DNA of 60,657 bases, taken from a virus (taxonomy: Duplodnaviria; Caudoviricetes). The notes under the pieces were generated by a model. The model was not told the origin of the DNA, searched no databases, and was given only the letters and a program-made list of their open reading frames with translations. The stretch lies in IMG/VR virus record IMGVR_UViG_3300028895_000276, positions 1 to 60,657 of that record; one strand, written 5' to 3'. A program made the position numbers and the translations under genes. Shown here piece by piece: positions 31,500 through 48,898 of this stretch; within the stretch, counting starts at the first letter, position 1; each line of letters opens with the position of its first letter.

Positions 31500-31527
31500 T
31501 ACCTATCACACAGGGAGACATACCACG

Positions 31528-32262: not shown

Positions 32263-32278
32263 TAGCCACGAGACGCCA

Positions 32279-32387: not shown

Positions 32388-32403
32388 CTAGAGGAGGACA
32401 CCC

Positions 32404-32625: not shown

Positions 32626-32795
32626 CCGAACCCAACGGGCGTATCGTCTGGAGGTGGCCAATCTTCCGCACCCTATGCATAAACGACCACTGCGTGTGGG
32701 GCATCCCAGTACGTGTGGTGCAGCATCGCCGCTGGTCATATACCCACGGACGTCGCGTGTGGGTAACCGTACGATTCTACAGATCGAGGTGGTAG
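32622..32795 (+). CDS. Small basic hypothetical protein
   Basis: ATGA overlap with the upstream gene. Confidence 0.5.
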   Translation: MTEPNGRIVWRWPIFRTLCINDHCVWGIPVRVVQHRRWSYTHGRRVWVTVRFYRSRW

Positions 32796-32797
32796 AG

Positions 32798-32989
32798 ATG
32801 AATACAGACTACGACAACATGAGTGATGAGCAGTTCCTAGCAGCCGCCGTGAACTCCGAGGATCGCACCGCGTTTCTGGAAGCCCTCACCCCGGAGCAGC
32901 TTGATCGGATGACGGCGCTGATCGCCAAGAGATTCGCGAGTTTCAACAAGCTGGTATCCGCTATCGTGGCGCCGCTACTGGAAGAGTGA
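32798..32989 (+). CDS. Small hypothetical protein
   Basis: RBS GAGGTGG; coupled to the downstream gene. Confidence 0.6.
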   Translation: MNTDYDNMSDEQFLAAAVNSEDRTAFLEALTPEQLDRMTALIAKRFASFNKLVSAIVAPLLEE

Positions 32990-33870: not shown

Positions 33871-33872
33871 CC

Positions 33873-34031
33873 ATGGATTGCCTACCTACGCCCACGCCAG
33901 ATATGACTAGCGTCCTGGTAACCAAATTCGCCGGCAACGAAGACCTGCTGTTCTGGATACTGATGTCGTTCCTGATCATACTCATTCTGGTGGCACTGTC
34001 CGGACAACCTAACATTGCTAAGAGGTGGTAG
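33873..34031 (+). CDS. Small single-TM protein
   Basis: RBS GGAGGAG; hydrophobic segment. Confidence 0.55.
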   Translation: MDCLPTPTPDMTSVLVTKFAGNEDLLFWILMSFLIILILVALSGQPNIAKRW

Positions 34032-34181
34032 AACGCCTGTCCTACAGTACCGAGGTCATGTATGCCGACAACATGACAGGTGTCATGTCTTGCCCGGAAA
34101 TACTTGACAAAGAGGCCAAGGTGTGGTTTAATAGGGGTAGATCAGAGGACACCAGCCAGCAGACAGGAGACAGACGAGATG
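34029..34181 (+). repeat. Early promoter cassette copy 4
   Basis: ATGACAGGTGTCAT 34073, TTGACA 34104, TTTAAT 34127, ATG 34179. Confidence 0.93.
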
Positions 34182-34652
34182 ACAGAGCAGAACGAGAGCA
34201 AGGTCGAGTACCACGTAGTGATCGAGGATGCGAAGGGTCACACAGACGGCATCGCCCACTTCATCTACAGCGACTGGGGATCAGCCAGCACCAAGGCGCA
34301 GCAGATGACAGCCTACCACCGCCAGACATACGCGGTACACGCGGTCCTGTTCAGCCCGCGCTACAACTTCCCGCAGCGGATCGGCAAGGTGAGCAAGCCC
34401 TACAACCCGCCCATGATCGCGAACAACCGCCCCAACGACCGCACGCTCAAGGCGATGGTAGTGAAGATCCTGCAGCAAGCTCTGATCGACGATGCAGTCA
34501 CGGTCGAGGACATCTACAACATCGGCGCCGAGCTTGATGACGACTACGACGCCGCAGTGGTCGAGGTGCAGGATTTGGCCGACCTACACGTGGCCGGCAG
34601 CGACAAGCTCAGCCAGATGGTCGAAGCTTACTGGACAGCCAGCGTCGAGTGA
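34179..34652 (+). CDS. Early hypothetical protein
   Basis: ATG at the end of cassette 4. Confidence 0.78.
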   Translation: MTEQNESKVEYHVVIEDAKGHTDGIAHFIYSDWGSASTKAQQMTAYHRQTYAVHAVLFSPRYNFPQRIGKVSKPYNPPMIANNRPNDRTLKAMVVKILQQALIDDAVTVEDIYNIGAELDDDYDAAVVEVQDLADLHVAGSDKLSQMVEAYWTASVE

Positions 34653-34660
34653 AGCACCGC

Positions 34661-34726
34661 ATGACAGATGTCATGTCCAAGGCATGACATCTGTCACTAC
34701 CGCCCCACCGCCCGATGTGGTTTAAT
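34661..34726 (+). promoter_or_regulatory. Double-operator promoter lacking TTGACA
   Basis: ATGACAGATGTCAT 34661 and ATGACATCTGTCAC 34684; TGTGG-TTTAAT 34721. Confidence 0.8.
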
Positions 34727-34774
34727 TGGGATATAGCAGACACACACAGACCAGACGACCAACGAGGAGACGAG

Positions 34775-35212
34775 ATGAGCTACGGATACCAGACTGTCGA
34801 GATGCAGAGATTCTCCAAGTACCACGTGAAGCTGTTCCGGTTCGGGTACGTGATCGCCACGTGCAAGGACATGCCCGAAGCCAAGGTGGCCCGCCGCATT
34901 CACCGCCGGCTGCTGAAGGGTCTCAAGACCAACCACGAGTTCGACCCCCGCGAGGCATTCACCGGTGAGCGTGTCCGCGAGAGCGTAGCGTTCGAGATCC
35001 TGCACACCCTGCTGGATGACGGCATCGCCGCAGTGATGGCCGACCTCGACATCGTGACTGAGGACCACCACGAACGCGCCGTCGAGATCCTGAGCGAGTG
35101 CAAGATCACGGACGACAGCGTGATGGCAGTCACCGGCAAGCTGTCCGCAGAACTCGCCATCGGGATGCTGCAGGCATACTCGTACGTTGAAGGATTCTCC
35201 CGGACCGCGTAA
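34775..35212 (+). CDS. Hypothetical protein
   Basis: RBS GAGGAGACGAG-ATG. Confidence 0.75.
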   Translation: MSYGYQTVEMQRFSKYHVKLFRFGYVIATCKDMPEAKVARRIHRRLLKGLKTNHEFDPREAFTGERVRESVAFEILHTLLDDGIAAVMADLDIVTEDHHERAVEILSECKITDDSVMAVTGKLSAELAIGMLQAYSYVEGFSRTA

Positions 35213-35250
35213 TCAGACGACCACAGACCAGACGACAGGAGACAGATCAG

Positions 35251-36711
35251 ATGACCACACAAGCAGTCAGCATCGACCAATTCCTCGAAGAAGGCGTCCT
35301 GATCAGGGTATCGGTATTCGGTACCACGATGTTCAAAGAGCGCATCGGGTGGGCACAGTTGGGGGTAGACCCCAGTGACGTGGACAACCGCCGCGTGAAA
35401 CAGGCCCATCACATCCTCAGCCCCGAAGCCCACTCCATGCTGCACGTGTGGTCTGGCAAGATGCGTGGACTCGTCCGCGAGTACAGCGTGGACACCAGCG
35501 CCGTGGATGCTCTGATGGGTGGTCACTGGCACTGGGTGGCCAACGCATCACTGCCCGACTTTCAGGACGCGTGGGATCGACTGATGCTCAAGCGCGACGA
35601 CATCGTCATGCACATCATCACCCACCTGGACGAGTACCGCGAGGAAGCCCGCGACTACTGGCGCGAACAGGCAGCCGGCGCATGGGCAGCCATCCGATCA
35701 CGCATCGGTGGCGCCGCGTTCGCAGTCGAAGGACGCATCTTCGATGCCACCGAACAGCCCGAATTCATCCAGTACTGCGTGGACGCAGCCATCGCCCGAT
35801 TCCCCACCGAAGACAAGATCCGCAACGAGATTCACGCCGGTTATACCACCTTCGAGCCGTTCAGCAACGTCCAACGCGCCGAAGCCCGCGAGCAGGTAGC
35901 CCGCGCCGACCAGGCACAGAGCGAAGCCGCCATCAGCAGGATGCGCGCCGAGGATCTCGCGTTCACCAAGCAGACACGCCGGCAAGCCATCCGTCAGGCA
36001 CAGATAACCCGCGCACAGGCTCTGGTGTCCGCAGTTAAGGATCCGGTGCAGGAGTCGCTAGAGAAGGCACTCGCCACGGTGGCCGACGAGGTGCAGAACA
36101 TTACCGACAGCTACCAGCGCAACGGGTACCTGAACTGGACCCTGGTCGAGAAGGCCAAGAAGCTACGCAAGCTCTGGAGTATCCTAGGTGGCGATATGGC
36201 CGACCAGGATCGCATCAAGACCCTGCTGATCGACCTCGAACGCTTCATCGACGCATGCCCGGACCGCAAGTACTCGAAGGACGACGCACGCACTATCCTG
36301 GCCGCACTCGGTAGCATCGGCAGCGCCGTCGAGAAAGAAGCCGCCGATATCGCAGCCGGCATCCACAAGGCAGAGAAGGCAGCCGCCAGCGTACCGGACA
36401 ACGCCGACGAGATCCTGGCAGCCCTGATCACCGCAGTCACCAAAGCACCCGGCATCGAAGCCCACCACCGCCGGCTGAGGAACTGGATGAACGACCTCTC
36501 GCCGGACACCCAGCGCGCCAACAACCTGCTGGAGTTGTCAGTGCTGGAGCGCATCCCTGCAGACCTCGAGCGGTACCGCAAGACCTCGACGTTCCCCAAG
36601 ATGCTCTTCGTGAAGCAACTGGCCACCCGCATGGTAGCCAGCTACAGCATCGAGCCGGCAGTAGCCGAGTGGGTGGTCACCTGCTGGGACAAGGTTCTGG
36701 ACCAGCGCTAG
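35251..36711 (+). CDS. Large helical hypothetical protein
   Basis: 486 aa, strong coding bias, RBS AGGAG. Confidence 0.85.
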   Translation: MTTQAVSIDQFLEEGVLIRVSVFGTTMFKERIGWAQLGVDPSDVDNRRVKQAHHILSPEAHSMLHVWSGKMRGLVREYSVDTSAVDALMGGHWHWVANASLPDFQDAWDRLMLKRDDIVMHIITHLDEYREEARDYWREQAAGAWAAIRSRIGGAAFAVEGRIFDATEQPEFIQYCVDAAIARFPTEDKIRNEIHAGYTTFEPFSNVQRAEAREQVARADQAQSEAAISRMRAEDLAFTKQTRRQAIRQAQITRAQALVSAVKDPVQESLEKALATVADEVQNITDSYQRNGYLNWTLVEKAKKLRKLWSILGGDMADQDRIKTLLIDLERFIDACPDRKYSKDDARTILAALGSIGSAVEKEAADIAAGIHKAEKAAASVPDNADEILAALITAVTKAPGIEAHHRRLRNWMNDLSPDTQRANNLLELSVLERIPADLERYRKTSTFPKMLFVKQLATRMVASYSIEPAVAEWVVTCWDKVLDQR

Positions 36712-36716
36712 CACGC

Positions 36717-36782
36717 ATGACGGGTGTCATCCGCACAGGGTGACACCCGTCACTAGCATTCATACGCAAGATGTGGTTTACT
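36717..36782 (+). promoter_or_regulatory. Double-operator promoter lacking TTGACA
   Basis: ATGACGGGTGTCAT 36717 and GTGACACCCGTCAC 36740; TGTGG-TTTACT 36777. Confidence 0.75.
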
Positions 36783-36819
36783 GGAAAGACAGCCAACACC
36801 AACAGCAAAGGAGACCTAC

Positions 36820-37149
36820 ATGGCGTCAAAGATCACTATCACACGGATCGACTTCGTGACCACCGAAGAGATGGTGGTCGTGAACAAGGTCTACGAGGGC
36901 GTGTTGCGAGGTAATCGCGACATCGTCGTCGACACCAAGCAGCATCCCATAGCGAAGTTCGAAGGTATGCTGGACTGGTGTGAGAAGAACGGGTGGATCG
37001 TGCGCCGGTTCGAGCCGCGAGGTGCACGAGCGTGGAAGGGAAGCGAGCCACGCCCGGTGCGCACCAAGAAGGCTATCAAGAAGCTAGCGATGCGCCTGCA
37101 ACGAGATGGATTCGACAGCAACCGCTTCGACCTCAGGTATGATATGTGA
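36820..37149 (+). CDS. Basic hypothetical protein
   Basis: RBS AAAGGAG. Confidence 0.75.
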   Translation: MASKITITRIDFVTTEEMVVVNKVYEGVLRGNRDIVVDTKQHPIAKFEGMLDWCEKNGWIVRRFEPRGARAWKGSEPRPVRTKKAIKKLAMRLQRDGFDSNRFDLRYDM

Positions 37150-37166
37150 AGCAGGAGACAGACGAG

Positions 37167-37934
37167 ATGAACCTCACAGACAAGCAGACCATCCAGCGAG
37201 TGCTGAAGGCACTAGGCGTCAAGGCCGAGACCATCAAGAGCGACCTCGACGTCGATCGCCTAAGCGAGTACGACGGATCTATCGAGGATGCCGTGCTTAT
37301 CCTCATCCACAACGCGGCAATCAGGCTGCAAGCCGACGTGCCCGAGAGCATCAAGACCCGCGCCACAGTCAGCAGCAACGTGCTAGGGTTCAATATCGAG
37401 GTCACCGGTAACAGCGTCATCGACATCAAGGACGGGTACTACACAGCCATTCGCGCTATCACGGATCTGCGGCAGGAAGGTTTCCACGAGTTGGCCATGC
37501 GCGACGGCACGCGGGCACAACCCACGTACAGCGCAGAGCCGCCACCTATGCCCGAGGACAACCCGCCGCCACCAGCCGGCAGCCCACCACCCGCAGCCGG
37601 CAGCCAGCCTACAGGCAGCCCACCACCAGCCGGCAACGGCAACCCACCGATCCAAGGACCCACCGACATCAAGCGAGGTGTAGCTCAACTGCACGAGATC
37701 GGCGTCGATTCCGATGGTAAGGTCAAGTTCAAGGTGGGTGGGTTCAAGTGGCCGTTCCAGGAGGGACGTGGCGCCGAGATGGCAGCGTCGCTGTTCGACA
37801 CCGATCTTGGCTGGAACGCTAATCACTTCAAGCCTGGCGCCCACTACGGACCCGAGATCTGTGGCCCGCTGCACGTAGAGTGGGAGAAGCCTGGCAAGTA
37901 CTACAACGTGATACGCGTCTTCAAGCAGATCTGA
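37167..37934 (+). CDS. Hypothetical protein with a Pro-rich linker
   Basis: PPPAGS repeats join two domains; upstream of ssb. Confidence 0.75.
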   Translation: MNLTDKQTIQRVLKALGVKAETIKSDLDVDRLSEYDGSIEDAVLILIHNAAIRLQADVPESIKTRATVSSNVLGFNIEVTGNSVIDIKDGYYTAIRAITDLRQEGFHELAMRDGTRAQPTYSAEPPPMPEDNPPPPAGSPPPAAGSQPTGSPPPAGNGNPPIQGPTDIKRGVAQLHEIGVDSDGKVKFKVGGFKWPFQEGRGAEMAASLFDTDLGWNANHFKPGAHYGPEICGPLHVEWEKPGKYYNVIRVFKQI

Positions 37935-37941
37935 CGCACTA

Positions 37942-38050
37942 GAAGGTACTCTCCTTGCACAGGACGGCACCAACAGGCCCTAACACACCCTCGATGCGAC
38001 GGAGAGCAAGGGAGATACCACGGAGAGCAACGGAGACCCATTCGGATTCA
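37942..38050 (+). repeat. Dispersed intergenic hairpin element, copy D
   Basis: gaaggtactctccttgcacaggacggc...; 37982-38037 identical to 32321-32376. Confidence 0.88.
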
Positions 38051-38073
38051 GAACTACCCTACAGGAGAGAGCG

Positions 38074-38514
38074 ATGCACGAGAGATGGCAGATTATCGGC
38101 AACCTTGGCGGAGACCCCGAGATGCGCTACACTGCAGACGGCACACCCGTCACCAACGTTAGCATAGCAGTGACACGACGCTGGAACGACCGCAACAGCG
38201 GCAACCGCCGCGAGCATACCACCTGGTACCGGGTGGCCGCGTGGAGCCGCAACGCTGAAGTGCTGGCCGAATACACGCACAAGGGAAGCCGCGTCTTCAT
38301 CGAAGGCGTGCCGGCAACCGACGAAAACGGCAACCCGCGCATCTGGACCGGGCAGGACGGGCAAGCACGCGCTAGCTATGAACTGACCGCGCAGAAGATC
38401 GTCCTGCTGGGTGACAGCGGTGGACAGCGCGACGCCGGCAACCAGCGGCAGGGTACCAGTCGCTATGCGGCACCAACCTCTGTGGCCGATAACGACGACG
38501 CCATCCCATTCTGA
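38074..38514 (+). CDS. ssb: Single-stranded DNA-binding protein
   Basis: IIGNLGGDPEMRYT, TTWYRVAAW, KGSRVFIEG, acidic tail DDAIPF. Confidence 0.95.
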   Translation: MHERWQIIGNLGGDPEMRYTADGTPVTNVSIAVTRRWNDRNSGNRREHTTWYRVAAWSRNAEVLAEYTHKGSRVFIEGVPATDENGNPRIWTGQDGQARASYELTAQKIVLLGDSGGQRDAGNQRQGTSRYAAPTSVADNDDAIPF

Positions 38515-38526
38515 GGAGGAGCAGCG

Positions 38527-38748
38527 ATGCGTAAACACACACGAACGGCAAAGCTAGTCGGAGTAGCCGTCATCGCGGCAGTCTTCCAAGGCATCATTAT
38601 CGGACAGAACCACGGGTGGCTTGCACAGGCCATGCTTATCGCGTGGGTGCTGGTATCGGTGATAGCTATCGACCTCAAGGACCGCCGCGATGCTGAGCTG
38701 GCCGAGTACGTGTACGACAGAGAGGACGAAGACGATGACACCGGTTAA
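38527..38748 (+). CDS. Small two-TM membrane protein
   Basis: Hydrophobic segments, acidic tail. Confidence 0.65.
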   Translation: MRKHTRTAKLVGVAVIAAVFQGIIIGQNHGWLAQAMLIAWVLVSVIAIDLKDRRDAELAEYVYDREDEDDDTG

Positions 38749-39274
38749 ACTGCACGACACCTTGCATGCCGCCGTCTTCGACGAGACGAAGTTCTGGCGA
38801 CAAACACATTACGGCAGCCTAGCACACCTATGGGCAGCCCGCAGAGGACAGGCATTCAGTCTGTGCGGTGCACGCCGTAGCCGGCACGTAATCGAAAGCC
38901 AGATAGCACGACCGAACGCGAAGCGATGCGCCAAGTGCGAAGCGTACGCAGACGCCTACCGGCACAGTCTGCAGCCGCTGCAAGTCAGCTTCGGGTCGCA
39001 AGGATCCTTCACCGACGAACGGTGGATCATAGCAACCCACCTCTACCACGAACTAACCGAGGATATCGTGCAGAGCATCCTGGCACAAGTCACCAAGGAC
39101 CACGACAGACTGCCGGCAAGGGTCATCTGCAGTGACGGCAACAGATCAGCGGTGACCGCCGCCGTGCGCAGGTTCAACCGGATGGAACGCACCGTGGTCC
39201 TGAGCGAAGCAGACAGCGTATGCGAATCCGGTCATCTATGGATTAAACTGCAACACGGGAGGGTCTACTCATGA
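38735..39274 (+). CDS. Hypothetical protein with a zinc-finger-like segment
   Basis: H...SLCG...CAKC pattern. Confidence 0.65.
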   Translation: MTPVKLHDTLHAAVFDETKFWRQTHYGSLAHLWAARRGQAFSLCGARRSRHVIESQIARPNAKRCAKCEAYADAYRHSLQPLQVSFGSQGSFTDERWIIATHLYHELTEDIVQSILAQVTKDHDRLPARVICSDGNRSAVTAAVRRFNRMERTVVLSEADSVCESGHLWIKLQHGRVYS

Positions 39275-39573
39275 CCAGACGTATCGTACGCGTGGACGAG
39301 ATATCAGGAGACAAGCGCGATGCCAGCGTAGTACGCCGCATCACCGTACCGTTTACGCCGGCTGAACTCGGTATCCTAGGCCGGGCAGCGGATGAAGCTG
39401 GCACCAACTTCAAACACCTCGTCAGATGCCTGGTGATCACAGGACTGCTGCAGCACTTCAGCGAGATAGCTAACCCGCTGCAGCACATCCTCACCGACGA
39501 GACTGACGATACCATCCACGAAAGTCTGCTACTGCCCGAGGTGGCTGATGGCAACCAGGATCTTGATGGGTAG
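39271..39573 (+). CDS. Small protein, possibly ribbon-helix-helix DNA-binding
   Basis: RRITVPFTPAEL..L..AA...G.NF..LVR pattern. Confidence 0.5.
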   Translation: MTRRIVRVDEISGDKRDASVVRRITVPFTPAELGILGRAADEAGTNFKHLVRCLVITGLLQHFSEIANPLQHILTDETDDTIHESLLLPEVADGNQDLDG

Positions 39574-40468
39574 TGCAGCCCTAGCTGCAGCAGCAGCCGA
39601 GGCCCTGCACACCGTCCTCAACCAGAAGACCGAGAGCGAGTATGCAGGACCGTGCCCCAAGTGCGGAGGTGAGGACCGGTTCGTCGTCTTCACGGATGGC
39701 AAACCGCGCTACTGGTGCAGGCAATGCGGGTACCGTGGTTTCCTGGACGGTATTCTAGAGATGACAGACGAGGACCGCGCCGCATACCAGGCAGCATCAG
39801 AAGAGCAGCGCGCCGCCGAAGCAGCCGCACGCGTCAAAGCCGAAGCCAAGATGGCCGAGAGCAAGGACCATCTGCAGTACTACAGTGCACTGCTAGCCAG
39901 ACCCGAACACATAGCCTACTGGACCGGTGAGGGCATCACCATGGATAGCATCCACAGATTCCAACTAGGATGGTGCGCTCACTGCCCCACCGACAGCGAA
40001 GGACGGTCCTCGTACACAATACCGATGTGGCGCGAAGGGAAGCTGGTTAACATTCGTCACCGACTGGAGACCACCGCATCTGGAGACCGCTACCGCCCAC
40101 ACGCCAAGCACCTACCGCGCAAGCTGCTGTTCAACCACGACGAGGCATTCGGCGCCAGTACCGGTATCATCCTGGAAGGCGCCAAGAAAGCCATCGTGCT
40201 AGGGCAACTTGGCTATGCTACGGTAGCCATCTGCGGCAAAAGCAACTACGACGAGAGGACCCTGGCACCGATACGGCACTGGGATCCAGCTTACGTGATG
40301 CTTGACCCGGATGCTACCGACACCGCGCTAGACATAGCCCGCATGTTGCACGGCAGAGGCTACCTAGTCAAGACCATCGTGAAGCCTGACGACCTCATCG
40401 TGCAGGGACACGGCAGCGCCGCCGATGTGGCACTGCTGCTGAAGTACGCTAGGAGGATCACACCATGA
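39548..40468 (+). CDS. DNA primase (zinc-binding + TOPRIM)
   Basis: GPCPKCGGEDRF..YWCRQC; IILEG..KA; MLDPD; KPDD. Confidence 0.85.
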   Translation: MATRILMGSAALAAAAAEALHTVLNQKTESEYAGPCPKCGGEDRFVVFTDGKPRYWCRQCGYRGFLDGILEMTDEDRAAYQAASEEQRAAEAAARVKAEAKMAESKDHLQYYSALLARPEHIAYWTGEGITMDSIHRFQLGWCAHCPTDSEGRSSYTIPMWREGKLVNIRHRLETTASGDRYRPHAKHLPRKLLFNHDEAFGASTGIILEGAKKAIVLGQLGYATVAICGKSNYDERTLAPIRHWDPAYVMLDPDATDTALDIARMLHGRGYLVKTIVKPDDLIVQGHGSAADVALLLKYARRITP

Positions 40469-40821
40469 ACAAGCAACTCAGCATGCTGCCACGCGTCAAG
40501 ACGCGCCAGCACGGACCGGGTGCACTGGATCCACACACGCCGCAGCAGAAGCGACTGTTTCAGGAGCTGCACCGCACCTACGCCGCGCTAGGACGACGAG
40601 CGCCTCGCCGGTTCGCAACCATCCAACAGGCAGAAGCCTACCAAACCGCCGCCGAGGAGCTAGGTGACGAATACAACGAGCTACTGCTCATGTCACTGCA
40701 AGCCGGCAGGACCAGCATGGCCGGCGTGTTGCGCTACCTGCAAGCGTGCGTTAGGTCGCGCAAAGAGACAGCCAGCGACGACAGCGAACCCAACGTCGTA
40801 AAGATGCCATGGACGGACTGA
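40465..40821 (+). CDS. Hypothetical protein (replication cluster)
   Basis: Coupled between primase and helicase. Confidence 0.65.
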   Translation: MNKQLSMLPRVKTRQHGPGALDPHTPQQKRLFQELHRTYAALGRRAPRRFATIQQAEAYQTAAEELGDEYNELLLMSLQAGRTSMAGVLRYLQACVRSRKETASDDSEPNVVKMPWTD

Positions 40822-41804
40822 CAGACGGGTCTCGCGGCATCGTCCACTCACCTGAGGACATCAGCCGCGCCACTACCGAATGGGCAAACCGCTGGACCGG
40901 TGACTACGGTCTAGGATTTGACTTCGGCGTGGACATCGTGGATCAGGATATGCTACCCTTCCGACCAGGCAGACAGACCATCGTCATAGCGCGTCCTGGC
41001 AATGGCAAGACCACGCTGCTGTGCTACATCACCACGCAGATCTGCAAGCAGCTAATAGAGCGACAGCAACCCAACAAGGCAGTCATCGCGTTCACGTGGG
41101 AGCAGTACGTCGAGGAGCTAGCAGCTACCATCGCTGCCACACCCGGTGCCATGCTGGGAGAGATCGAGCGTGGAGAAGCCAACCCTAACGCCATCACCGA
41201 GATGGGTATGCGCCTGCTGCGTCTGCCGCTCTGGATAGTAGGGTACAGCTACGAGCTACAGGACTACGTCATCACCTCGCTGGATGGCAAGAGCCACAAG
41301 CTACCCAAGCTAACACCAGACGCTATCACATCGGCTGTTGACTGGATATACAACGAGTATGGCGTCGAGCCGGCAGCATTCACCTACGACTACCTGCAGG
41401 AAATGACCATACCTGGAGACTTCGACAAACGGCAGCAGGTTGACTCTGCAGCACATACCACGAAAGAGATGGCGCTCAGGTACGAAGCACCCAGCATCGT
41501 AGCCGCACAGGCCAAGCGCGAGGTGGACGACTACAAGTTCAAGACGCCGATGCTGGGAGACTGCCAATGGTCGAGTGTGGGAGAGCAGGTCAGCGATACG
41601 GTACTAGGACTGTGGATGCCCTACATCGCGATGGGACAGGGAGAGCTAGACATCCACGGCACGCGCTATGAGGTCACGCCCAAGATGCTTGTCTGCCGCA
41701 TGAACAAACAGCGCGGAGGAATTCCCCGCGCCACGTGGGTGCTGGCCATCAACCATCGCCGGCTGAGCCTAAGCGAATATGTGGAAATAGAGGACCTCTA
41801 CTAG
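40809..41804 (+). CDS. dnaB: DnaB-like replicative helicase (C-terminal domain only)
   Basis: ARPGNGKT Walker A, DYLQ, AQAKRE, EQVSD, KQRGG. Confidence 0.9.
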   Translation: MDGLTDGSRGIVHSPEDISRATTEWANRWTGDYGLGFDFGVDIVDQDMLPFRPGRQTIVIARPGNGKTTLLCYITTQICKQLIERQQPNKAVIAFTWEQYVEELAATIAATPGAMLGEIERGEANPNAITEMGMRLLRLPLWIVGYSYELQDYVITSLDGKSHKLPKLTPDAITSAVDWIYNEYGVEPAAFTYDYLQEMTIPGDFDKRQQVDSAAHTTKEMALRYEAPSIVAAQAKREVDDYKFKTPMLGDCQWSSVGEQVSDTVLGLWMPYIAMGQGELDIHGTRYEVTPKMLVCRMNKQRGGIPRATWVLAINHRRLSLSEYVEIEDLY

Positions 41805-41922
41805 ATGGATCTCGCACGCGTAAGGACTACCCCTACCCCAAGACGTATGGAGGATACATGTAACGTGCTTACCCCGGTAACACGGACGTATCCGCATTTT
41901 GGGGAAGTGGGGCAGGGGACTA

Positions 41923-41988
41923 ATGATAGGTGTCATGTACGACTAGGACGACCGCCACTTGACGCCTACGGACAGGGTGTGGTTTAAT
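41923..41988 (+). promoter_or_regulatory. Polymerase promoter with operator
   Basis: ATGATAGGTGTCAT 41923, TTGACG 41959, TGTGG-TTTAAT 41983. Confidence 0.8.
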
Positions 41989-42013
41989 AGTGCACAAGCA
42001 AGGAGGGACGACC

Positions 42014-43825
42014 ATGAGCTACTACGCCTTAAGCTTCGAACCCGGTGACGTAGAAGAGCCTCTGACAGCAGAGGACATCGCCGCGATAGCTGCATCAGAT
42101 ATGGTGGCTATCGACACGGAGACCACCGGGCTGGACTACGACAGCAGGATCCTTGGTATTAGCGTAGCGTGGCGCGTGCCCGGTGCTATGCACAGTGCCT
42201 ACCTGAACCTTAGTCACCCGCTGAGCCTGTTTTCAGCACGCATCGACGACGACATCGTCGCGGACGTGATGAGAGCGGTCTTTGAACCGGACCGACCGGT
42301 GGCTCTGCTAAACGCCGTCTTCGACATAGAGAAGCTGTCACGCTGGGGTCACCTGGAGCTGCCTATCGAATACCCGTACCTCTACGACGCACAGATCCTG
42401 GCGCGTTGGCTGATGTCCTTCGAGAAGTTCCAAGGCGTCAGCATGGAGAAGCTAGTTAGCCGGCGCCTAGGCGGCATGCCGCCGTGGATGAGCAGCATGA
42501 AGAAGATGAGGTCCAAGCTAGGGACGCTACCAGCGGAGAAGGTCAGCCCGTACGCCCGCGCCGACGCCGAGTTCACCTTGATGCTGGTCGAGGATCTGAT
42601 GCGCGAGGGTAGACTGCTCTACGACGACGAAGTCCTAGACACGATGCTGGAACGCGAGAGCCGGTTTTTGTGGTTACTCACCCGGATCCAGCGACACGGT
42701 ATCCTGCTGGACCTCGAAGAGATCCACGAGCGGTCCGTACGAATGACCGCAGACATGCAAGAGCTGCGAGCGTTCCTGAAGCAGAACGGCATTCACAACC
42801 CGGACAGCCGCGATAGCGTTCTCAAGGGTCTACCTATGCACATCGTGGCAGGACTACCGCAGACCGACAACGGCAACTACAAGATCGACAGTGCTGCCCT
42901 AGCCGGAAAAGGACCGGTGGCCGAGGCAGTATTGCGCTATCGCAGTTTAGGCAAGGCCGTTGGTACGTGGCTGGACGGTTTCCGCAGCAAGGTAGCCAGC
43001 GATGGCCGGCTGCATCCGCGATTCCGCGCTGCCGGCACGGTCTCTGGCCGGCTGTCCTGCAACGAGCCGAATTTGCAGGCTGTCCCACTAGCGGACCGTG
43101 GCGCCGCGTTCGGTAGCCTGATGGGTATATTCAAGGCAGCACCTGGATTCTCGCTGTTGGCTGCAGACTACGAGCAAGCCGAGCTTCGGACGTGCGCCGC
43201 GTATGCTAAGTCTACCGCTATGGCCAACGCATTCAAGAACGGAGAGGATATTCACTCGTTTGCTGCTAGTCTGATGTGGCCGGACTCGGAGATCAACTAC
43301 GAGCTACGGCAGCTAGGCAAACGTTGCAACTACTGCACCACCTACGGTGGCGGGTACCGTGCGCTGGCCGAGAACACTGGCATACCTGAGAGCGAAGCCA
43401 AGATCGTCATCAACACGTACCGTCGTGCCTTCCCTGAACTGGTAGCAGCACAGAATCGCGCCGGTGACGTATGGGAGCAGCGAGGGTACATCACGATGTG
43501 GAATGGCCGCCGGCACTACAAGTCACCTAACGACGGCAGCTACAAAGCCTTCAACCAGGTCATGCAGGGTGACGTAGCTGAGCTGGTCAAGGACGCTATG
43601 CTGAGTGTGGACGCCCGGTTCGCAGAGATGGGTGTTGGCAACATCGTGCTACAGATCCACGACAGCATCGAAGTCGAGGTACAGACCGACGCCGTCGAGG
43701 ACGTGAAAGCGATGATGCGTAAGGAGATGGTAGCCGCCGCACCGCTGCACATCATGAACCGCACTGAGCCGCCTATCACCATGGACGTTGGGTTCGAGAA
43801 CTGGTACCCCGAGGAGGACGAATGA
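42014..43825 (+). CDS. polA: Family A DNA polymerase with 3'-5' exonuclease (candidate DpoZ)
   Basis: Exo I DTETTG, Exo II NAVFD, Exo III YARAD; SGRLS..PNLQ; motif A DYEQAELR; motif B KRCNYCTTYG; motif C IHDS. Confidence 0.95.
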   Translation: MSYYALSFEPGDVEEPLTAEDIAAIAASDMVAIDTETTGLDYDSRILGISVAWRVPGAMHSAYLNLSHPLSLFSARIDDDIVADVMRAVFEPDRPVALLNAVFDIEKLSRWGHLELPIEYPYLYDAQILARWLMSFEKFQGVSMEKLVSRRLGGMPPWMSSMKKMRSKLGTLPAEKVSPYARADAEFTLMLVEDLMREGRLLYDDEVLDTMLERESRFLWLLTRIQRHGILLDLEEIHERSVRMTADMQELRAFLKQNGIHNPDSRDSVLKGLPMHIVAGLPQTDNGNYKIDSAALAGKGPVAEAVLRYRSLGKAVGTWLDGFRSKVASDGRLHPRFRAAGTVSGRLSCNEPNLQAVPLADRGAAFGSLMGIFKAAPGFSLLAADYEQAELRTCAAYAKSTAMANAFKNGEDIHSFAASLMWPDSEINYELRQLGKRCNYCTTYGGGYRALAENTGIPESEAKIVINTYRRAFPELVAAQNRAGDVWEQRGYITMWNGRRHYKSPNDGSYKAFNQVMQGDVAELVKDAMLSVDARFAEMGVGNIVLQIHDSIEVEVQTDAVEDVKAMMRKEMVAAAPLHIMNRTEPPITMDVGFENWYPEEDE

Positions 43826-44448
43826 CCGAAGAGAAAGAGCCGTATCTGGACCACCCCAGCGCCACAGAGCAAGACGCTACCTGGAGGAACACATCCAGCG
43901 TGGATTGGCTGTCGCCACCCGAGGTGCTAGCAGCCGCCCGCAACGTCATGGGCAAGTTCGATCTCGATCCAGCCAGCAGCGAGAAGGCTAACCAGTTCGT
44001 GCGCGCCGAGGTATTCTTCGGACAGGACAACGGCACGGACGGTCTGCAGATGCCCTGGCGTGGCAGGGTCTGGTTGAATCCACCATACGGTAAGTACAAA
44101 CCGGGTGTCAGCCGTGCCGGCATGTGGGGCAAGAAGCTACTCGAGGAGTACATCGCAGGCAAGGTAATAGAAGCGTGCCTGTACGTCAAGACCGCCGTTG
44201 GCTATAAGTGGTTCGACAAACTACTGCAGCAGGCCGATGCCGTCTGTTTCCTGTGGGGTCTGCCCGAGCACCTGAACCTCGTAGACAACCGCTACGGGAA
44301 GTGCAAGATGGGCAGAGCAGTGATGTACTACGGGTCGCACCCTGCACAGTTCGTGCAGTGCTTTAGGCACCTAGGCTATTTCCGGTTCGACGCCGCCGAC
44401 CGCACGGATTACCACGTCCTACGCGCTGTTGGTATGGCCAAATTCTAA
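43822..44448 (+). CDS. Phage DNA N6-adenine (amino) methyltransferase
   Basis: W.SPP, FDLDPAS, DGL..PW.GRVWLNPPYG motifs of the phage Dam-like family. Confidence 0.9.
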   Translation: MTEEKEPYLDHPSATEQDATWRNTSSVDWLSPPEVLAAARNVMGKFDLDPASSEKANQFVRAEVFFGQDNGTDGLQMPWRGRVWLNPPYGKYKPGVSRAGMWGKKLLEEYIAGKVIEACLYVKTAVGYKWFDKLLQQADAVCFLWGLPEHLNLVDNRYGKCKMGRAVMYYGSHPAQFVQCFRHLGYFRFDAADRTDYHVLRAVGMAKF

Positions 44449-44462
44449 CGGAAGGAGACACC

Positions 44463-44786
44463 ATGAAGGACTCGTTGCAAGCGAAGGTCGGATCCGTGCT
44501 GTTCATGTTGGCGATGATTGGGTTGACCATCGGCGCCGCTGCCTACTTCGGCAATCTGCTGATCGAGGAGATAGTCAGCAACCGCGCCGAGACCATCCTG
44601 GCGAACGGTGAGCTGGCTATCGATGAAGCCATCGCCCGCAGCATCGACGCCGGCACAGCCGCTTCGATGGCAGACACCAGGCTAGCCACCGCTATGTCCT
44701 GGTACCCGTTCGTCATCGGAGTAACTGCCGTGTTCGCTGTCGTTTTCTACGTCCTACTGACAGCGCCGGCACGGAAGAACAGTTAA
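44463..44786 (+). CDS. Two-TM membrane protein
   Basis: N- and C-terminal hydrophobic helices; RBS AAGGAG. Confidence 0.7.
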   Translation: MKDSLQAKVGSVLFMLAMIGLTIGAAAYFGNLLIEEIVSNRAETILANGELAIDEAIARSIDAGTAASMADTRLATAMSWYPFVIGVTAVFAVVFYVLLTAPARKNS

Positions 44787-44788
44787 TA

Positions 44789-44845
44789 GTCATGTGTAGC
44801 TAGTGACACCTGACACTAGCACGGAGCAGCAAACTGGTGTTTAAT
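44789..44845 (+). promoter_or_regulatory. Operator-type promoter of the purZ operon
   Basis: Half site GTCAT 44789, GTGACACCTGACAC 44803, TTTAAT 44840; no TTGACA. Confidence 0.65.
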
Positions 44846-44876
44846 AGGGTCACGTCACAACCCACAGGAGGAAGCG

Positions 44877-45974
44877 ATGTTACAGCAGGTATGGAGTATC
44901 GTTGGCGGTCAGGCCGGCAGCGAAGGCAAAGGCAAGGCAGCCGGGTATCTGGCAGCCGCTCTCAAGCCCGAGGTGGTAGCGTGCGCGTTCACCGCCAACG
45001 CTGGCCACACAGCGTATGACCGGGACGGCAACAAGATCGTCGTGCACACCATCCCGATTGGCGCGTTCTTCGGCGCAAAGCTGGTCGTCATCGGACCGGG
45101 TGCTGCCATCCGCACGTGGCGCCTGATCGAGGAGATGGAAGCGTTGCACCGCGTGAACCCGGACTGCAAGGTGCTGCTAGACGAGAACGTGGTACTCATC
45201 TCACCGGAGCAGGTAGCGTGGGAAGCCGAGACGATGAAGAAGATCTCGTCCACGTGCCAAGGCGTGGGACGCGCACAGGCCGACAGGCTACTGCGGCAGG
45301 GTCGCGCAGACACCGCTAGCAACCACGCACCCACCTTCATCGAAGGTCTCACAGTAGGCAGCGCCGCCGAGGTGTTGCAGGTGCGCTACGATTCCGGTGA
45401 CAAGATCCAGATCGAAGGTTGTCAAGGTATCGACATCGACCTACTACACGGGATCCAGTACCCGTACTGCACCAGCCGCAGCATCACCGCCGCAGCCGTG
45501 GCTAACGACTGTGGATTCCCTGCAACCCGCGTGGACAGCGTGGTCTCGGTGTTCCGCACCTACCCTATCCGCGTGGGCAACGTGGTTGAGGAAGGCAAGC
45601 AGGTTGGATGGAGCGGACCTATCCCACGGGACAGCGACGAGTTGACGTGGGACGAGATGACCAAGCTGGCCGGCAGCCCCGAGAGACTAGAGGAGCGAAC
45701 CACCGTCACCAAGAAGGTACGCCGCATCTTCACGTGGAGCCGGCAGCGCTACATCGTCTCGCAGTGGCTGAACAACGCCACGCACGCGTGGGTTAACTTC
45801 GGTGACTACCTCGACTGGAACATCCACGGCGTGTGCGGCAACACCACAGAGCTGCATAGCATCAGCAAGACCGCTGCGCAGTGGGTTGACACCGAGATCG
45901 GCATGTCACACCTGCTGGCACTCGGTACCGGTCCTGGCATGGATGACGTGATCGCGCATCCTAGACTGAGGTAG
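44877..45974 (+). CDS. purZ: N6-succino-2-amino-dAMP synthetase (PurZ/PurZ0 type, PurA paralogue)
   Basis: GGQAGSEGKGK (Ser for the PurA Asp of GDEGKGK), NAGHT, EGCQG, YPYCTSR, RTYPIRVG, ERTTVTKKVRR, LGTGP; 365 aa. Confidence 0.88.
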   Translation: MLQQVWSIVGGQAGSEGKGKAAGYLAAALKPEVVACAFTANAGHTAYDRDGNKIVVHTIPIGAFFGAKLVVIGPGAAIRTWRLIEEMEALHRVNPDCKVLLDENVVLISPEQVAWEAETMKKISSTCQGVGRAQADRLLRQGRADTASNHAPTFIEGLTVGSAAEVLQVRYDSGDKIQIEGCQGIDIDLLHGIQYPYCTSRSITAAAVANDCGFPATRVDSVVSVFRTYPIRVGNVVEEGKQVGWSGPIPRDSDELTWDEMTKLAGSPERLEERTTVTKKVRRIFTWSRQRYIVSQWLNNATHAWVNFGDYLDWNIHGVCGNTTELHSISKTAAQWVDTEIGMSHLLALGTGPGMDDVIAHPRLR

Positions 45975-45976
45975 CG

Positions 45977-47116
45977 ATGATCGAGCGCTACAACAACGCA
46001 GACATCGCTGGTATCTGGAGCACCACGAGCCAGTACCAGCGATGGCTGGACATCGAGAGGACTTGGATACGCTGCTTACTGGACATCGATCCACCGATGG
46101 TACCAGGAGAGGTGGTTATTCACGACATCCGCGTCAATACGTACGAGATCGAGCACTTCGAGACCGTGACACACCACGATGTGCGAGCATTCCTGATGTG
46201 GCTAGAGCGTGAGCTGCCGTCGCCGCTACGCAGATACCTACACCTAGGACTAACAAGCTCTGATGTCGTAGACACCGGCACAGCCCTAGCAGTGCGCGGT
46301 AGCGTGCGCGTGTTGGATGATATCTACAGCCGGCTGATACACTACCTGTACAAGAGTGCAGCCAGCGCGCCGCCGCTGCTACCATCCTACTCACACGGGC
46401 AGCCGGCACGCAGCATCTCGAGCGCCCACTTCTACCGGCGTCTAGAGATACCCATAGGTAGAGCGTTCTCAGAGGTGAGCGTATCGCAGCTGCCCATAGC
46501 CATCGGTGGTCCTACTGGCGAATGGTCAAGCTTACCACCAGGAGCCACGTCCACGCTGCTGCAAGCACGCTCATCTTTCAACGTCATCATGTCCACCCGC
46601 TACGGCGTAAAGAACGTAGCGCCGAGATCGCAGGCTCTGGACCGCTCTTACTACACGAAGCTAGCACAGGCACTCAGCAGGATGTCCAACGCACTGTCAC
46701 AGGCTGCCCTGCACCTGAGGTTCTACCACCTACGCGGTATGCTGCGGATAGGCGGTACAGCCTCATCATCAGCGATGCCGAACAAGAGCAACCCAGTACG
46801 CCTAGAGAAGGTGTGCGGCATGGCACGCGTAGCGCGAGGGTACGCTCTGATGGCCGGCTGCAACCAGGACACGTGGGAGCTACGCGACATCAGCAACTCG
46901 TCAGTAGAAAGGGTCTGGATGCCGGATCTGTTCCACACGGTGGCACACCAGGTTAGCACGCTCTGCAACGTGATCGCCAAGATGCAGTGGGTCGAGCCGG
47001 CAATCGACGCTGAGCTAGCAGCCTTCCCCAATGACCCATTCGGAAAGATGGTGGCGTTGCAAGCCACCGGGATGCACTACAACAAAGCATGGCGCACAGC
47101 CAAGGAGGACACATGA
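45977..47116 (+). CDS. purB: Adenylosuccinate lyase homologue
   Basis: HHDV, HLGLTSSDVVDT, SHGQPA, SSAMPNKSNP..E, RDISNSSVER; 379 aa, short C-terminus. Confidence 0.92.
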   Translation: MIERYNNADIAGIWSTTSQYQRWLDIERTWIRCLLDIDPPMVPGEVVIHDIRVNTYEIEHFETVTHHDVRAFLMWLERELPSPLRRYLHLGLTSSDVVDTGTALAVRGSVRVLDDIYSRLIHYLYKSAASAPPLLPSYSHGQPARSISSAHFYRRLEIPIGRAFSEVSVSQLPIAIGGPTGEWSSLPPGATSTLLQARSSFNVIMSTRYGVKNVAPRSQALDRSYYTKLAQALSRMSNALSQAALHLRFYHLRGMLRIGGTASSSAMPNKSNPVRLEKVCGMARVARGYALMAGCNQDTWELRDISNSSVERVWMPDLFHTVAHQVSTLCNVIAKMQWVEPAIDAELAAFPNDPFGKMVALQATGMHYNKAWRTAKEDT

Positions 47117-47601
47117 GCACTGACTACAGCCGGCTGGGAGTGGTACCTATTGCCGACGTCACACAGGACCACGTGCAAGGATACGCCCGCGAGATGACAC
47201 CCAGCGCCGGCATCGTTCCGCTACACGACATCGAGCGCGTCATCGCGAGTATGTTTCTCAAGGTCAGGGACGGCGCTATGGACCGGATGCCCGGTACCCT
47301 GTCATTGTACGATGACGCGATGGCTATAGCGCCTCGCGTGCCCGGTATCGCGGACAAGCAACACGCTTTGGCCGAGGTACGCGCACGCATCAAAGAGCGA
47401 GGCGAGCAGTACGGGTGTGCCGTCCTCAACCTGATGGGTACCTGGTACACTAGCTCAAACGTGGCTGCCAAGCTACTGCGCGTGTGGGATCACTGGACAC
47501 AGCACAAGATCCTACTGACCGACGAAGTGCTAGACATCGCTGGGTACTGCATCTTGAACATGGCGATACTCACCCACAGCATGGCCGAGGTCGGACAATG
47601 A
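47113..47601 (+). CDS. All-alpha nucleotide pyrophosphohydrolase-like protein (candidate MazZ analogue)
   Basis: KERGEQYG ... KLLR ... DEVLDIAGY pattern of nucleotide-modification-associated MazG-like domains; operonic with purZ. Confidence 0.6.
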   Translation: MSTDYSRLGVVPIADVTQDHVQGYAREMTPSAGIVPLHDIERVIASMFLKVRDGAMDRMPGTLSLYDDAMAIAPRVPGIADKQHALAEVRARIKERGEQYGCAVLNLMGTWYTSSNVAAKLLRVWDHWTQHKILLTDEVLDIAGYCILNMAILTHSMAEVGQ

Positions 47602-48458
47602 ACAGCATCTACCTAGCCGGTCCTCTGGACTACGCCAACCTAGGCGACAAGGCAGCGTGGCGCGAACGGTTCGCAGCTCTGCTGGGTCAGCACTCTCCCA
47701 TGTCCGCACAGCTACCGCTGCTCTACGATCCTAGCAAGCCTTTCACCAACCCGCTGTCCAGCCCGGACACGCTGGTTTCCGTGAACATGGCCGCACTGGA
47801 AGCAAGCTCTATCGTGATAGCACTGGTTATCTCGACCGAGCCGTCGTGGGGCACACCCATCGAGATATGGGAAGCACGCCGGCAAGGCAAGCCCGTGCTG
47901 TTGTGGGTACCGAACGAGGACTGCCCGCCCTACCTCATCGCAGACACTGAACGGTATCTGACGCTGAACGCCATCGCCGCTAGGACCGCTGAGATGTTGT
48001 ACCAGGACGCAGATACCGACCTCGTCACCACGTCTCAAGACCTACTGTACGAGAACGGTGGTATCCAGTTCCCCAAGATCTCTGGTGATGTAGGGTATGA
48101 CGTCGAGGTGATGTCACAGACCAGGCTACTGCCGCACGCCATCACCAAGGTGCCATTGGGATTCAACGGTGAGCCACTACGCGTGAAGACACCGCGTGGT
48201 ACGTGGTTCTCGATGTTCCCACGCAGCAGCATGGTCGACAAGGGTCTAATGGTCGTGAAGACCGTCTGCGACGAAGGGTACACCGGTGATCTGTTCATGT
48301 TCGTGTACAACACCACCAACAAGCTGCTGATGCTGCTACCCGGACAGAGGATCGGGCAGATCGTGCTGTTCGATAGCGTCACGCCGCAGATGCGCCACGT
48401 GTCTACACTACCGCGCACCGCACGTGGCAGTAACGGTTTCGGCAGCACAGGGACGTGA
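47598..48458 (+). CDS. Fusion of a nucleoside 2-deoxyribosyltransferase-like domain and a trimeric dUTPase-like domain
   Basis: N-terminal IYLAGP and SWGTPIE..EA...GKPV; C-terminal GDVGYD, PRSS, CDEGYTG, GQRIGQ, RGSNGFGSTG. Confidence 0.88.
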   Translation: MNSIYLAGPLDYANLGDKAAWRERFAALLGQHSPMSAQLPLLYDPSKPFTNPLSSPDTLVSVNMAALEASSIVIALVISTEPSWGTPIEIWEARRQGKPVLLWVPNEDCPPYLIADTERYLTLNAIAARTAEMLYQDADTDLVTTSQDLLYENGGIQFPKISGDVGYDVEVMSQTRLLPHAITKVPLGFNGEPLRVKTPRGTWFSMFPRSSMVDKGLMVVKTVCDEGYTGDLFMFVYNTTNKLLMLLPGQRIGQIVLFDSVTPQMRHVSTLPRTARGSNGFGSTGT

Positions 48459-48898
48459 CCGTGAATAGGGACAGCCTACGCATCATCCGCACCACACCAA
48501 ACCCGAAAGACTACGCGTTGCACTGGTCAACCGCGTGGAACAGACACGTGAAACAGCGGTCAGTGATGCCAGAACCGATCTGCACCGACACCACCGGTGA
48601 GCTGGAGTTCGCCTACGCAGACCTCGACCGGCACTGGCGCTTCGACTGGTGTATACCCGAAGCCAAGGTCGCAGTAGAGGTGGACGGCGGCAAGATGATC
48701 GTACGCCGCACGCGTAGCGGCAAGGTCGTGCCAGTAGGCCGGCACATACAGGACGACGACGCGTGGAAGCTAAACAGCGCCGCGTCCCTAGGGTGGTTGG
48801 TATTCACCTTCACTCCGGCAATGCTGCGCAAAGACCCTGTCCGCTGCGTCGAGATGGTCGAGGAGACCGTGCTACAACGACTAGCGGGTTTGGTTTAA
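48455..48898 (+). CDS. PD-(D/E)xK endonuclease (DUF559/Vsr-like)
   Basis: EF...R.WRFD...KVAVEVDGG...H...D..K.N.A..LGW.VF.F. Confidence 0.8.
   Translation: MTVNRDSLRIIRTTPNPKDYALHWSTAWNRHVKQRSVMPEPICTDTTGELEFAYADLDRHWRFDWCIPEAKVAVEVDGGKMIVRRTRSGKVVPVGRHIQDDDAWKLNSAASLGWLVFTFTPAMLRKDPVRCVEMVEETVLQRLAGLV

Follow-up and report, generated by a model that had tools for sequence, protein, structure and literature searches.

A candidate 2-aminoadenine nucleotide and replication module in the genome of an uncultured tailed virus

The window analyzed here is the whole 60,657-bp stretch of the IMG/VR virus record IMGVR_UViG_3300028895_000276. We describe the gene cluster at positions 41990-48898 of the window, which is built around a PurZ-type synthetase, and its probable role in the replacement of adenine by 2-aminoadenine (Z). 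The cluster is composed of the following genes, domains and open reading frames (ORFs; lengths in amino acids, aa):

41990-43825, plus strand: PolA, family A DNA polymerase with a 3'-5' exonuclease domain (DNA_pol_A 5.4e-61; DNA_pol_A_exo1 1.9e-11; phrog_17 1.3e-102)
43822-44448, plus strand: Dam-family, N6-adenine-type DNA methyltransferase (MTase) with an NPPY motif (PF05869 4.6e-11; phrog_111 1.5e-22)
44463-44786, plus strand: 107-aa ORF with hydrophobic stretches, small membrane ORF (no Pfam or PHROG family)
44877-45974, plus strand: purZ, PurZ-type (PurA-like) synthetase with the motif GSEGKGK (PF00709 5.5e-32; phrog_1211 4.9e-59)
45977-47116, plus strand: purB, short-form PurB-like lyase of 379 aa (Lyase_1 1.3e-13)
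47113-47601, plus strand: orf162, 162-aa all-helical protein (no Pfam match)
47598-48458, plus strand: NDT::dUTPase fusion (PF05014 1.2e-8; PF00692 1.4e-18)
47598-48044, boundary approximate, plus strand: NDT-like (DmtZ-like) N-terminal domain of the fusion (PF05014 1.2e-8)
48045-48458, plus strand: trimeric-dUTPase-like (DutZ-like) C-terminal domain of the fusion (PF00692 1.4e-18)
48455-48898, plus strand: 147-aa ORF coupled to the fusion (phrog_503, function unknown, 2.1e-12; no Pfam or PADLOC match)

All genes that an earlier note, made from the sequence alone, had named in this segment are present in their places on the plus strand, as judged by Pfam, PHROG and the reading of ORFs. The note had correctly placed a family A polymerase upstream of the synthetase; position 42014, where it had begun the gene, is an internal ATG of an ORF that begins at 41990. 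Its description of the operon as tightly coupled is correct, because the gap, the overlaps and the Shine-Dalgarno-like motifs can be read directly from the sequence. The purZ and purB genes are separated by 2 nucleotides (nt), ATGA overlaps join purB to orf162 and orf162 to the fusion gene, and a GTGA overlap joins the fusion gene to the 147-aa ORF. Each start in the coupled run is preceded by a GAGG or AGGAGG. The start of the methyltransferase gene overlaps the PolA stop as ATGA. Scans for promoters and terminators gave matches no more numerous than those in shuffled sequences, and the 90-nt spacer upstream of purZ folds no better than its shuffles (z -0.15). The 107-aa ORF has no homolog in any of the fetched loci besides the window.

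The synthetase contains the motif G14-S15-E16-G17-K18-G19-K20 within GGQAGSEGKGK. Residue S15 occupies the position of the catalytic aspartate of PurA (Asp13 in E. coli; S14 in phage phiVC8), and its reading in the translation confirms that GSEGKGK stands in place of GDEGKGK in this PurA-like gene, as the earlier note had observed. Among solved structures, the closest relative is PurZ of phage S-2L (7odx, 3.5e-36), followed by Pyrococcus PurA and phiVC8 PurZ at about 1e-30 and by E. coli PurA at 1.9e-18. The synthetase matches 204 phage records, all at less than 60% identity. The best matches listed include the known Z phages S-2L, PMBT28 and SH-Ab 15497, and Wayne-like phages; ZP6 and many Arthrobacter and Microbacterium phages are also among the matches listed. 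A collection of 5.8 billion proteins holds eight relatives at 46-61% identity (P0001-P0008), and the others are at most 41% identical.

The position of the synthetase was determined in two trees, one of 139 rows computed with LG+G4 and one of 60 rows computed with a PMSF mixture model, with five canonical GDEGKGK PurA proteins as the outgroup of both. Both are quick searches, with branch support from the Shimodaira-Hasegawa-like approximate likelihood ratio test (SH-aLRT) only. Ser-type proteins form one clade in both trees, set apart from the five canonical PurA proteins by a branch with a support of 100. The window synthetase and P0001-P0008 form a clade of their own (support 100 and 99), which is nested with BpsS-140-like proteins and the crown PurZ of phiVC8, S-2L, SH-Ab 15497 and PMBT28 in a clade of 40 rows in the first tree and 30 rows in the second (support 100 in each). 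The PurZ0 references from phages Hiyaa, Beethoven, Cicada and Ghobes form a separate clade with a support of 100 in another branch, and the window synthetase is outside it. In the phylogeny against PurA, PurZ0 and PurZ, which the earlier note had suggested as a check, the synthetase is placed with phage PurZ and not with cellular PurA, and on the crown side and not on that of PurZ0. As judged from its sequence, the synthetase combines membership of a small, deep-branching clade on the crown-PurZ side with retention of the guanine-specifying aspartate D310, and this combination appears to be new.

The residues named for the deoxyguanosine monophosphate (dGMP) pocket and the deoxy-selectivity of S-2L PurZ are S23, N49, A50, S131, T132, Q190, Y203-T205, R240, V241, T273-T276 and a loop insertion (PMC8342488; this and the other publications are cited throughout from the available portions of their text). 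All of these have identical counterparts in the window synthetase, among them N41/A42, S125/T126, Q183, Y197-C198-T199, R232-V233 and T275-T278, according to a phmmer alignment to 7odx and a MAFFT alignment. The loop insertion, located after V233, and the aspartate-loop TTVT are kept as well. The base site of the nucleoside triphosphate (NTP) contains the stacking F308 and the neighboring tyrosine Y311, as in ATP-using PurZ. The synthetase is predicted to convert dGMP, aspartate and an NTP to N6-succino-2-amino-2'-deoxyadenylate.

The NDT::dUTPase fusion has a characterized counterpart in the Arthrobacter phage Wayne, the DmtZ-DutZ protein, which destroys dATP and dAMP and supplies dGMP (PMC12884076). 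DutZ, the C-terminal Dut-like domain, converts dATP, dGTP and dUTP to monophosphates; DmtZ, the N-terminal NDT-like domain, releases adenine from dAMP and can transfer deoxyribose-5-phosphate to free Z (PMC12884076). In the same source, dutZ is present in 98 of 98 PurZ0 genomes, dmtZ in 85 of those, and the two are fused in 77 of the 85; in Ghobes, DmtZ and DutZ are encoded by separate genes (PMC12884076). The window fusion is 27-30% identical over 99-100% of its length to the fusions of Wayne-like phages and Hiyaa (gp69), with the same order of domains. Residues Y5, D11, P45, N63 and E89 of its NDT-like domain align with Y6, D12, P57, N77 and E103 of Ghobes DmtZ, which were tested by mutagenesis (PMC12884076). 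Each of the 30 best phage rows for the Dut domain is the Dut gene of a phage of Microbacterium, Micrococcus, Arthrobacter or Streptomyces, with 34-39% identity; those of Cicada, PermaG and Hiyaa, phages with a PurZ-type gene, are among them. The Dut motifs PRSS, GYTGD, GQRIGQ and RGSNGFGSTG align. By homology, the NDT-like domain is probably a dAMP N-glycosidase and deoxyribose-5-phosphate transferase, and the Dut domain a diphosphohydrolase of dATP and dGTP (and dUTP).

The PurB-like lyase resembles adenylosuccinate lyases, which occupy all of the top 26 rows of a search of the PDB; the best match is the S. aureus enzyme 2x75 (1e-30). The alignment to 2x75 retains THHDV, LTSSDVVDT, SHGQPA and the signature loop SSSAMPNKSNP, which presumably contain the catalytic residues. 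The ADSL_C domain (PF10397) is not matched by Pfam in the 379-aa protein, and none of the lyase homologs exceeds 33% identity. The lyase is expected to cleave the succino intermediate to dZMP, the monophosphate of Z, and fumarate. PurB-like genes of phages have been annotated previously, as gp36 of Ghobes and gp76 of Hiyaa; these phages are PurZ0-type according to PMC12884076 or group with those that are. The lyase step is assigned to host PurB in the introductions of PMC12884076 and 10.1101/2025.10.22.683976, and to bacterial PurB in PMC12783734; the words "PurB" and "lyase" do not appear in the available text of PMC12884076.

The accessory enzymes reported so far come in two sets, with PurZ0 paired with DutZ, DmtZ and DpoZ-1, and PurZ with DatZ, MazZ and DpoZ-2 (PMC12884076). 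Pfam scans of 12 + 56 window ORFs (E<=0.001) detected neither an HD (DatZ), MazG, DUF550 or DUF5664 gene nor a nucleotide kinase. Searches of the window by tblastn with phiVC8 DatZ, S-2L MazZ and the Beethoven DUF5664 protein gave a best E of 0.014, and a best E of 4.6 for DatZ. Eighty IMG/VR loci with PurZ-type genes contain a Dut homolog in 48 cases, DatZ in two, both in none, and a PurB homolog no more than 10 kb from the PurZ-type gene in eight; these tallies are biased, which counts against using them as support, because the loci were picked by patterns favoring GSEG-type proteins. In locus L140, purB comes directly after purZ, and L131 has the order PurB-PolA-MTase-PurZ-...-Dut. The pairing of a crown-side synthetase with PurZ0-type accessory enzymes, where DatZ, MazZ and DUF5664 were not found, appears from the gene content to be new.

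In a tree of PolA proteins, the window polymerase pairs with the partial PolA of locus L015 (support 99), the closest relative, which covers 2,250 bp. The sister group of this pair consists of the PolAs of the IMG/VR loci L139, L116, L131 and L140 (SH-aLRT 88), and the closest cultured relatives of the window polymerase are PolAs of actinophages. PolA adjoins purZ in the window, in L015 and in 36 of the 80 IMG/VR loci. We regard it as a candidate Z-incorporating polymerase, linked to PurZ by position and belonging to neither of the DpoZ clades, and it appears to be a third, new PurZ-linked lineage. The order PolA-MTase-PurZ is kept in L015 (MTase at L015:492-1085), and the two methyltransferases are 48% identical and both belong to PF05869. 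In L131, from an unrelated IMG/VR phage, the position between PolA and purZ is taken by a PF01555 N6_N4_Mtase (9218-9934). That one position is filled by methyltransferases of different families suggests that DNA methylation and the Z module are functionally linked.

The protein encoded by orf162 was labeled MazG-like or MazZ-like in the earlier note. This label is unsupported, as the protein has no Pfam match even at E 10, its hhalign probability is 0.2% against S-2L MazZ and 0.05% against the Beethoven DUF5664 protein, and no structural match was found. The AF2 model computed from a five-row alignment is all-helical, with seven helices and a pLDDT of 91.4; the single-sequence fold has a pLDDT of 49.8. 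Foldseek returned nothing for the model at E<=0.001. The best Z of an exhaustive VIA search is 5.9, which does not rise above the noise stated for helical proteins, and the all-alpha dUTPase 2yay, with a Z of 5.0, is also in the noise. Relatives of orf162 number four among 1.84 billion representatives. A word-based search returned only the protein itself, a sequence search of the PDB, tblastn against phages and a scan of IMG/VR with the orf162 alignment returned none, and no homolog was found in L131, L140 or L116. Judged by its model, orf162 is an ORF of unmatched fold inside the operon, which appears to be a new feature.

The nearest Atlas cluster of orf162 consists of 52% DUF1599 (score 0.89, 187 shared features), and hhalign against four Bacteroidota DUF1599 proteins gives an E of 0.0023 and a probability of 12.6%, in an alignment where the RGxxYG and AKxLR motifs line up. 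DUF1599 is described in Pfam as linked to nucleotide modification. We treat the possible DUF1599-like nature of orf162 as a weak lead only, because the Pfam model of the family has no match in the window even at E 10, nor in five records of PurZ phages, and no DUF1599 structure was found in the PDB by sequence. The orf162 relative P0125 and the PurZ relative P0008 are both listed on a contig of 4,439 bp, and the PurB-like protein P0151 and the PurZ relative P0007 on one of 39,541 bp; in each case the equal size is suggestive only. If the listed contigs are the same, purB and orf162 may be conserved in the clade of the window synthetase.

We consider it likely that the segment 41990-48898 serves as the module for nucleotides and replication in a phage that replaces adenine by Z, by way of DutZ and DmtZ and not of DatZ and MazZ. 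We infer all enzymatic activities, as well as the occurrence of Z in the viral DNA, from homology and gene context. The DutZ and DmtZ domains would deplete dATP and dAMP and supply dGMP. The NDT-like domain would take away dAMP as adenine and deoxyribose-5-phosphate, and may pass the sugar phosphate to free Z. The synthetase would join dGMP to aspartate, and the phage lyase would free dZMP. Host kinases would raise dZMP to dZTP, and the neighboring family A polymerase would copy the genome with Z opposite T.

Since the lyase is encoded by the phage, the release of dZMP would be independent of the host. The earlier note had called the enzyme set more autonomous, and the description fits the lyase step, which is given to host PurB in the literature and is phage-encoded here. 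Its term Z-genome is borne out as far as homology and gene context support the synthesis of Z nucleotides, and is probable for the substitution itself. The term non-canonical suits the combination of enzymes, which is new; it does not suit the members, as the fusion is a known DmtZ-DutZ, PurB had already been annotated in Ghobes and Hiyaa, and the MazZ-like member falls away. Enzyme sets of this kind were described in 2025-2026, so the module is a variant of the known Z pathway and not a new system.

Several observations speak against replacement of adenine by this module. The synthetase has A13 where S-2L has the aromatic Y21 and phiVC8 the aromatic F12, and the latter is said to sit by the 2-amino group (10.1101/2025.10.22.683976). 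Its P-loop GSEGKGK is PurA-like; the crown PurZ have GSTGKG and PurZ0 GSEAKG. D310 is located where ATP-using PurZ has an amide (Q308 in S-2L, N297 in phiVC8), and an aspartate is found there in canonical PurA and in four PurZ0 rows. The synthetase thus looks like a PurZ with a mixed NTP-base site, in which the Asp shared by GTP-using PurA and PurZ0 stands beside the Phe and Tyr seen in ATP-using PurZ, so that GTP or ATP may be the phosphate donor. According to one sentence of PMC12884076, "ATP and GTP, respectively" are preferred by PurZ0 and PurZ, and the introductions of PMC12884076 and 10.1101/2025.10.22.683976 have PurZ using ATP; we take the sentence to be inverted. The Trp124 lid of Ghobes DmtZ is not kept in the NDT-like domain of the window, and tblastn with this domain alone finds no phage homolog at E<=0.01. 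PolA is outside the clades of phiVC8 (DpoZ-2) and Ghobes/Beethoven (DpoZ-1), each with a support of 100, in a tree with an unresolved backbone, and the solved structures closest to it belong to ordinary Pol I enzymes. G+C-only sites are not singled out by palindrome statistics (Mann-Whitney p 0.17 or 0.03, by background model). The palindrome GCCGGC occurs 120 times (32-78 expected), CGGCCG, CGCGCG, CCCGGG and GGGCCC do not occur, CAGCTG occurs once and GAGCTC is absent; the most depleted 4-mer palindrome is GGCC, with 166 copies against 292 expected.

To these observations belongs the distribution of the serine itself. Across many phyla, species-representative prokaryote genomes contain more than 566 loci for Ser-type PurA paralogs with GSEGKG, and the paralog stands alongside a canonical PurA in five of five genomes tested. 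Eighty cellular genome loci that were fetched contain a PolA homolog nearby in one case and a Dut homolog in none. All three cellular loci examined have a kinase fusion in a non-phage operon. The statement of the earlier note that the change from Asp to Ser marks PurZ is therefore too strong. Since Ser-type PurA paralogs are found in hundreds of cellular genomes, the exchange is not diagnostic by itself; Ser at the catalytic position is, as far as sequences indicate, necessary and not sufficient for PurZ, and the Ser motif should not be the sole ground for calling a Z phage.

The three cellular loci come from Hydrogenophaga (L177:6087-9711), Mycobacterium gordonae (L182:4012-9734) and Dyadobacter (L189:5791-9661). 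Their Ser-type PurA fusions are about 535-555 aa long and have an N-terminal P-loop nucleoside/nucleotide-kinase-like domain. They lie in a conserved operon with the gene order M78 peptidase (best PADLOC match capP), kinase::PurA(Ser) and DUF7002, and the M. gordonae locus has a Lyase_1 gene and a PRA-PH (MazG-like) gene next door. The name DUF7002 was not found in the literature searched. This operon may be a defense-type or signaling system that uses PurZ-like chemistry.

It is also conceivable, if unlikely, that Z nucleotides are made and the substitution is partial, or that Z has a different purpose, for example to poison host replication or to evade a defense, and that PolA has no preference for Z. 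The position of PolA outside both DpoZ clades, with actinophage PolAs as its closest cultured relatives, would agree with this. So would the Dam-family adenine methyltransferase, kept in L015, which would be odd in a module of a phage where no adenine remained, and the strong avoidance of CAGCTG and GAGCTC, which contain A. However, phages reported to be fully substituted have this arrangement, in which a DmtZ-DutZ type of fusion removes both dATP and dAMP (PMC12884076), and the adjacency of PolA and purZ here, in L015 and in 36 of the 80 IMG/VR loci also counts against this reading.

A purine-salvage pair is a very unlikely explanation. The synthetase and lyase would then act as PurA and PurB on inosine monophosphate (IMP) and raise AMP and ATP, and the fusion would be an ordinary dUTPase with an accessory domain. 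PurA and PurB do catalyze both steps from IMP to AMP, the synthetase shares GxEGKGK and the guanine-specifying D310 with PurA, and phages without a PurZ match, such as the Microcystis phage MaAM05, can have PurB-like genes too. Yet the catalytic Asp is replaced by Ser, and the synthetase is nested in phage PurZ, across a branch with a support of 100 from the five canonical PurA proteins. Its deoxy-selective loop features are present, the Dut domain is nearest to Duts of PurZ-type phages, and the NDT-like domain keeps the dAMP-specifying Asp. It is equally improbable, in our estimate a slim chance, that the synthetase and lyase start from a substrate other than dGMP and make another modified purine deoxynucleotide, which orf162 and the methyltransferase modify further. 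The substrate-site positions A13 and D310, unlike those of characterized PurZ, the ORF of unmatched fold with its weak DUF1599 likeness between purB and the fusion, and the cellular Ser-type paralogs in other operons, which suggest more than one chemistry in the family, are compatible with such a product. Most of the dGMP pocket is nevertheless identical to that of S-2L PurZ, and the accessory enzymes belong to the Z pathway.

Replacement of adenine by Z through DutZ and DmtZ is the reading under which we compare the module with known systems. The PurZ0-type actinophages Wayne, Ghobes and Hiyaa share with the window a Ser-type synthetase, NDT and Dut domains that are often fused there, a nearby PolA and a PrimPol, and no DatZ or MazZ was found in them. 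Ghobes and Hiyaa encode a PurB-like lyase, as does the window. The Hiyaa set of PurZ0, PurB, DmtZ-DutZ and PolA equals that of the window in predicted function. In contrast to these phages, the window synthetase is outside the PurZ0 clade and has GSEGKGK in place of GSEAKG, and identities are only 27-39%. Unlike Ghobes and Beethoven, the window has a PolA of another clade, and DUF5664 was not found in it. The purB genes of Ghobes and Hiyaa are kilobases away from purZ, whereas purZ, purB, orf162 and the fusion gene of the window form one overlapping operon.

The crown PurZ of phiVC8, S-2L, SH-Ab 15497 and PMBT28 have in common with the window synthetase the clade with a support of 100, the Phe/Tyr pair (F308, Y311) and the loop insertion after Arg-Val. 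The window differs from crown-PurZ phages in that no DatZ or MazZ homolog was found, in GSEGKGK instead of GSTGKG, in D310 instead of Gln or Asn, in a PolA that is not DpoZ-2, and in a phage-encoded lyase. The uncultured IMG/VR phages of loci L131, L140 and L116 resemble the window in having PolA (29-32% identity), DnaB-like and primase-like genes, PurZ and Dut, and in L131 and L140 also PurB, together in one module. However, their PurZ is on the PurZ0 side, their Dut has no NDT fusion, and the L131 methyltransferase belongs to PF01555 and not to PF05869.

Outside the module, the window is a complete virus record with exact direct terminal repeats of 144 bp and a G+C content of about 59%. Structural genes, including tape measure, minor tail proteins and a weak terminase match, are on the minus strand, and the genes for replication and nucleotides occupy a long block of the plus strand, from about 27.4 to 50 kb. 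A DNA-level search against 50,697 phage records found no relative of the window, and a single-protein scan of IMG/VR gave one spurious short match and nothing more. In addition to PolA, three replication genes are present:

25611-27338, minus strand: PrimPol-domain protein (PF09250 1.6e-13)
39548-40468: primase-like zinc-ribbon protein
40809-41804: DnaB-like helicase

A primase/polymerase gene is also found in Wayne-like and Ghobes phages. A 294-aa protein at 32986-33870 on the plus strand matches phrog_6247 ("DNA topoisomerase", 3.8e-109) and no Pfam family at E<=0.001. The AT skew of the plus strand is +0.15 to +0.27 over 26000-42000, which contains early and replication genes, and about 0 to -0.13 over the minus-strand structural blocks (1-26 kb and beyond 50 kb). 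Among the structural genes, the minus-strand regions 10801-11610, 13011-14888 and 18414-19948 encode an ALK/LTK glycine-rich domain protein (6.9e-31), a family 2 glycosyltransferase with an E3-binding domain, and two adjoining sulfotransferase-family proteins. This set is unusual in a siphovirus-like genome.

We speculate, with considerable doubt, that the clade of the window synthetase and P0001-P0008 is an evolutionary intermediate, a GTP-using PurZ with D310 that already has the Phe/Tyr pair. Its self-contained purZ-purB-orf162-dmtZ::dutZ cassette would then turn dGTP and dATP to dZMP without host PurB, orf162 would be a new component with an undescribed fold, and the Dam-type methyltransferase would methylate 2-aminoadenine. 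D310 offers a simple handle on the switch of the donor from GTP to ATP. A compact, coupled cassette that includes the lyase could help to produce Z-DNA in hosts with a PurB that is poor at processing the intermediate. If confirmed, the module would break the pairing of PurZ0 with DutZ, DmtZ and DpoZ-1 and of PurZ with DatZ, MazZ and DpoZ-2, and would indicate that the accessory sets have been mixed more freely than cultured phages suggest.

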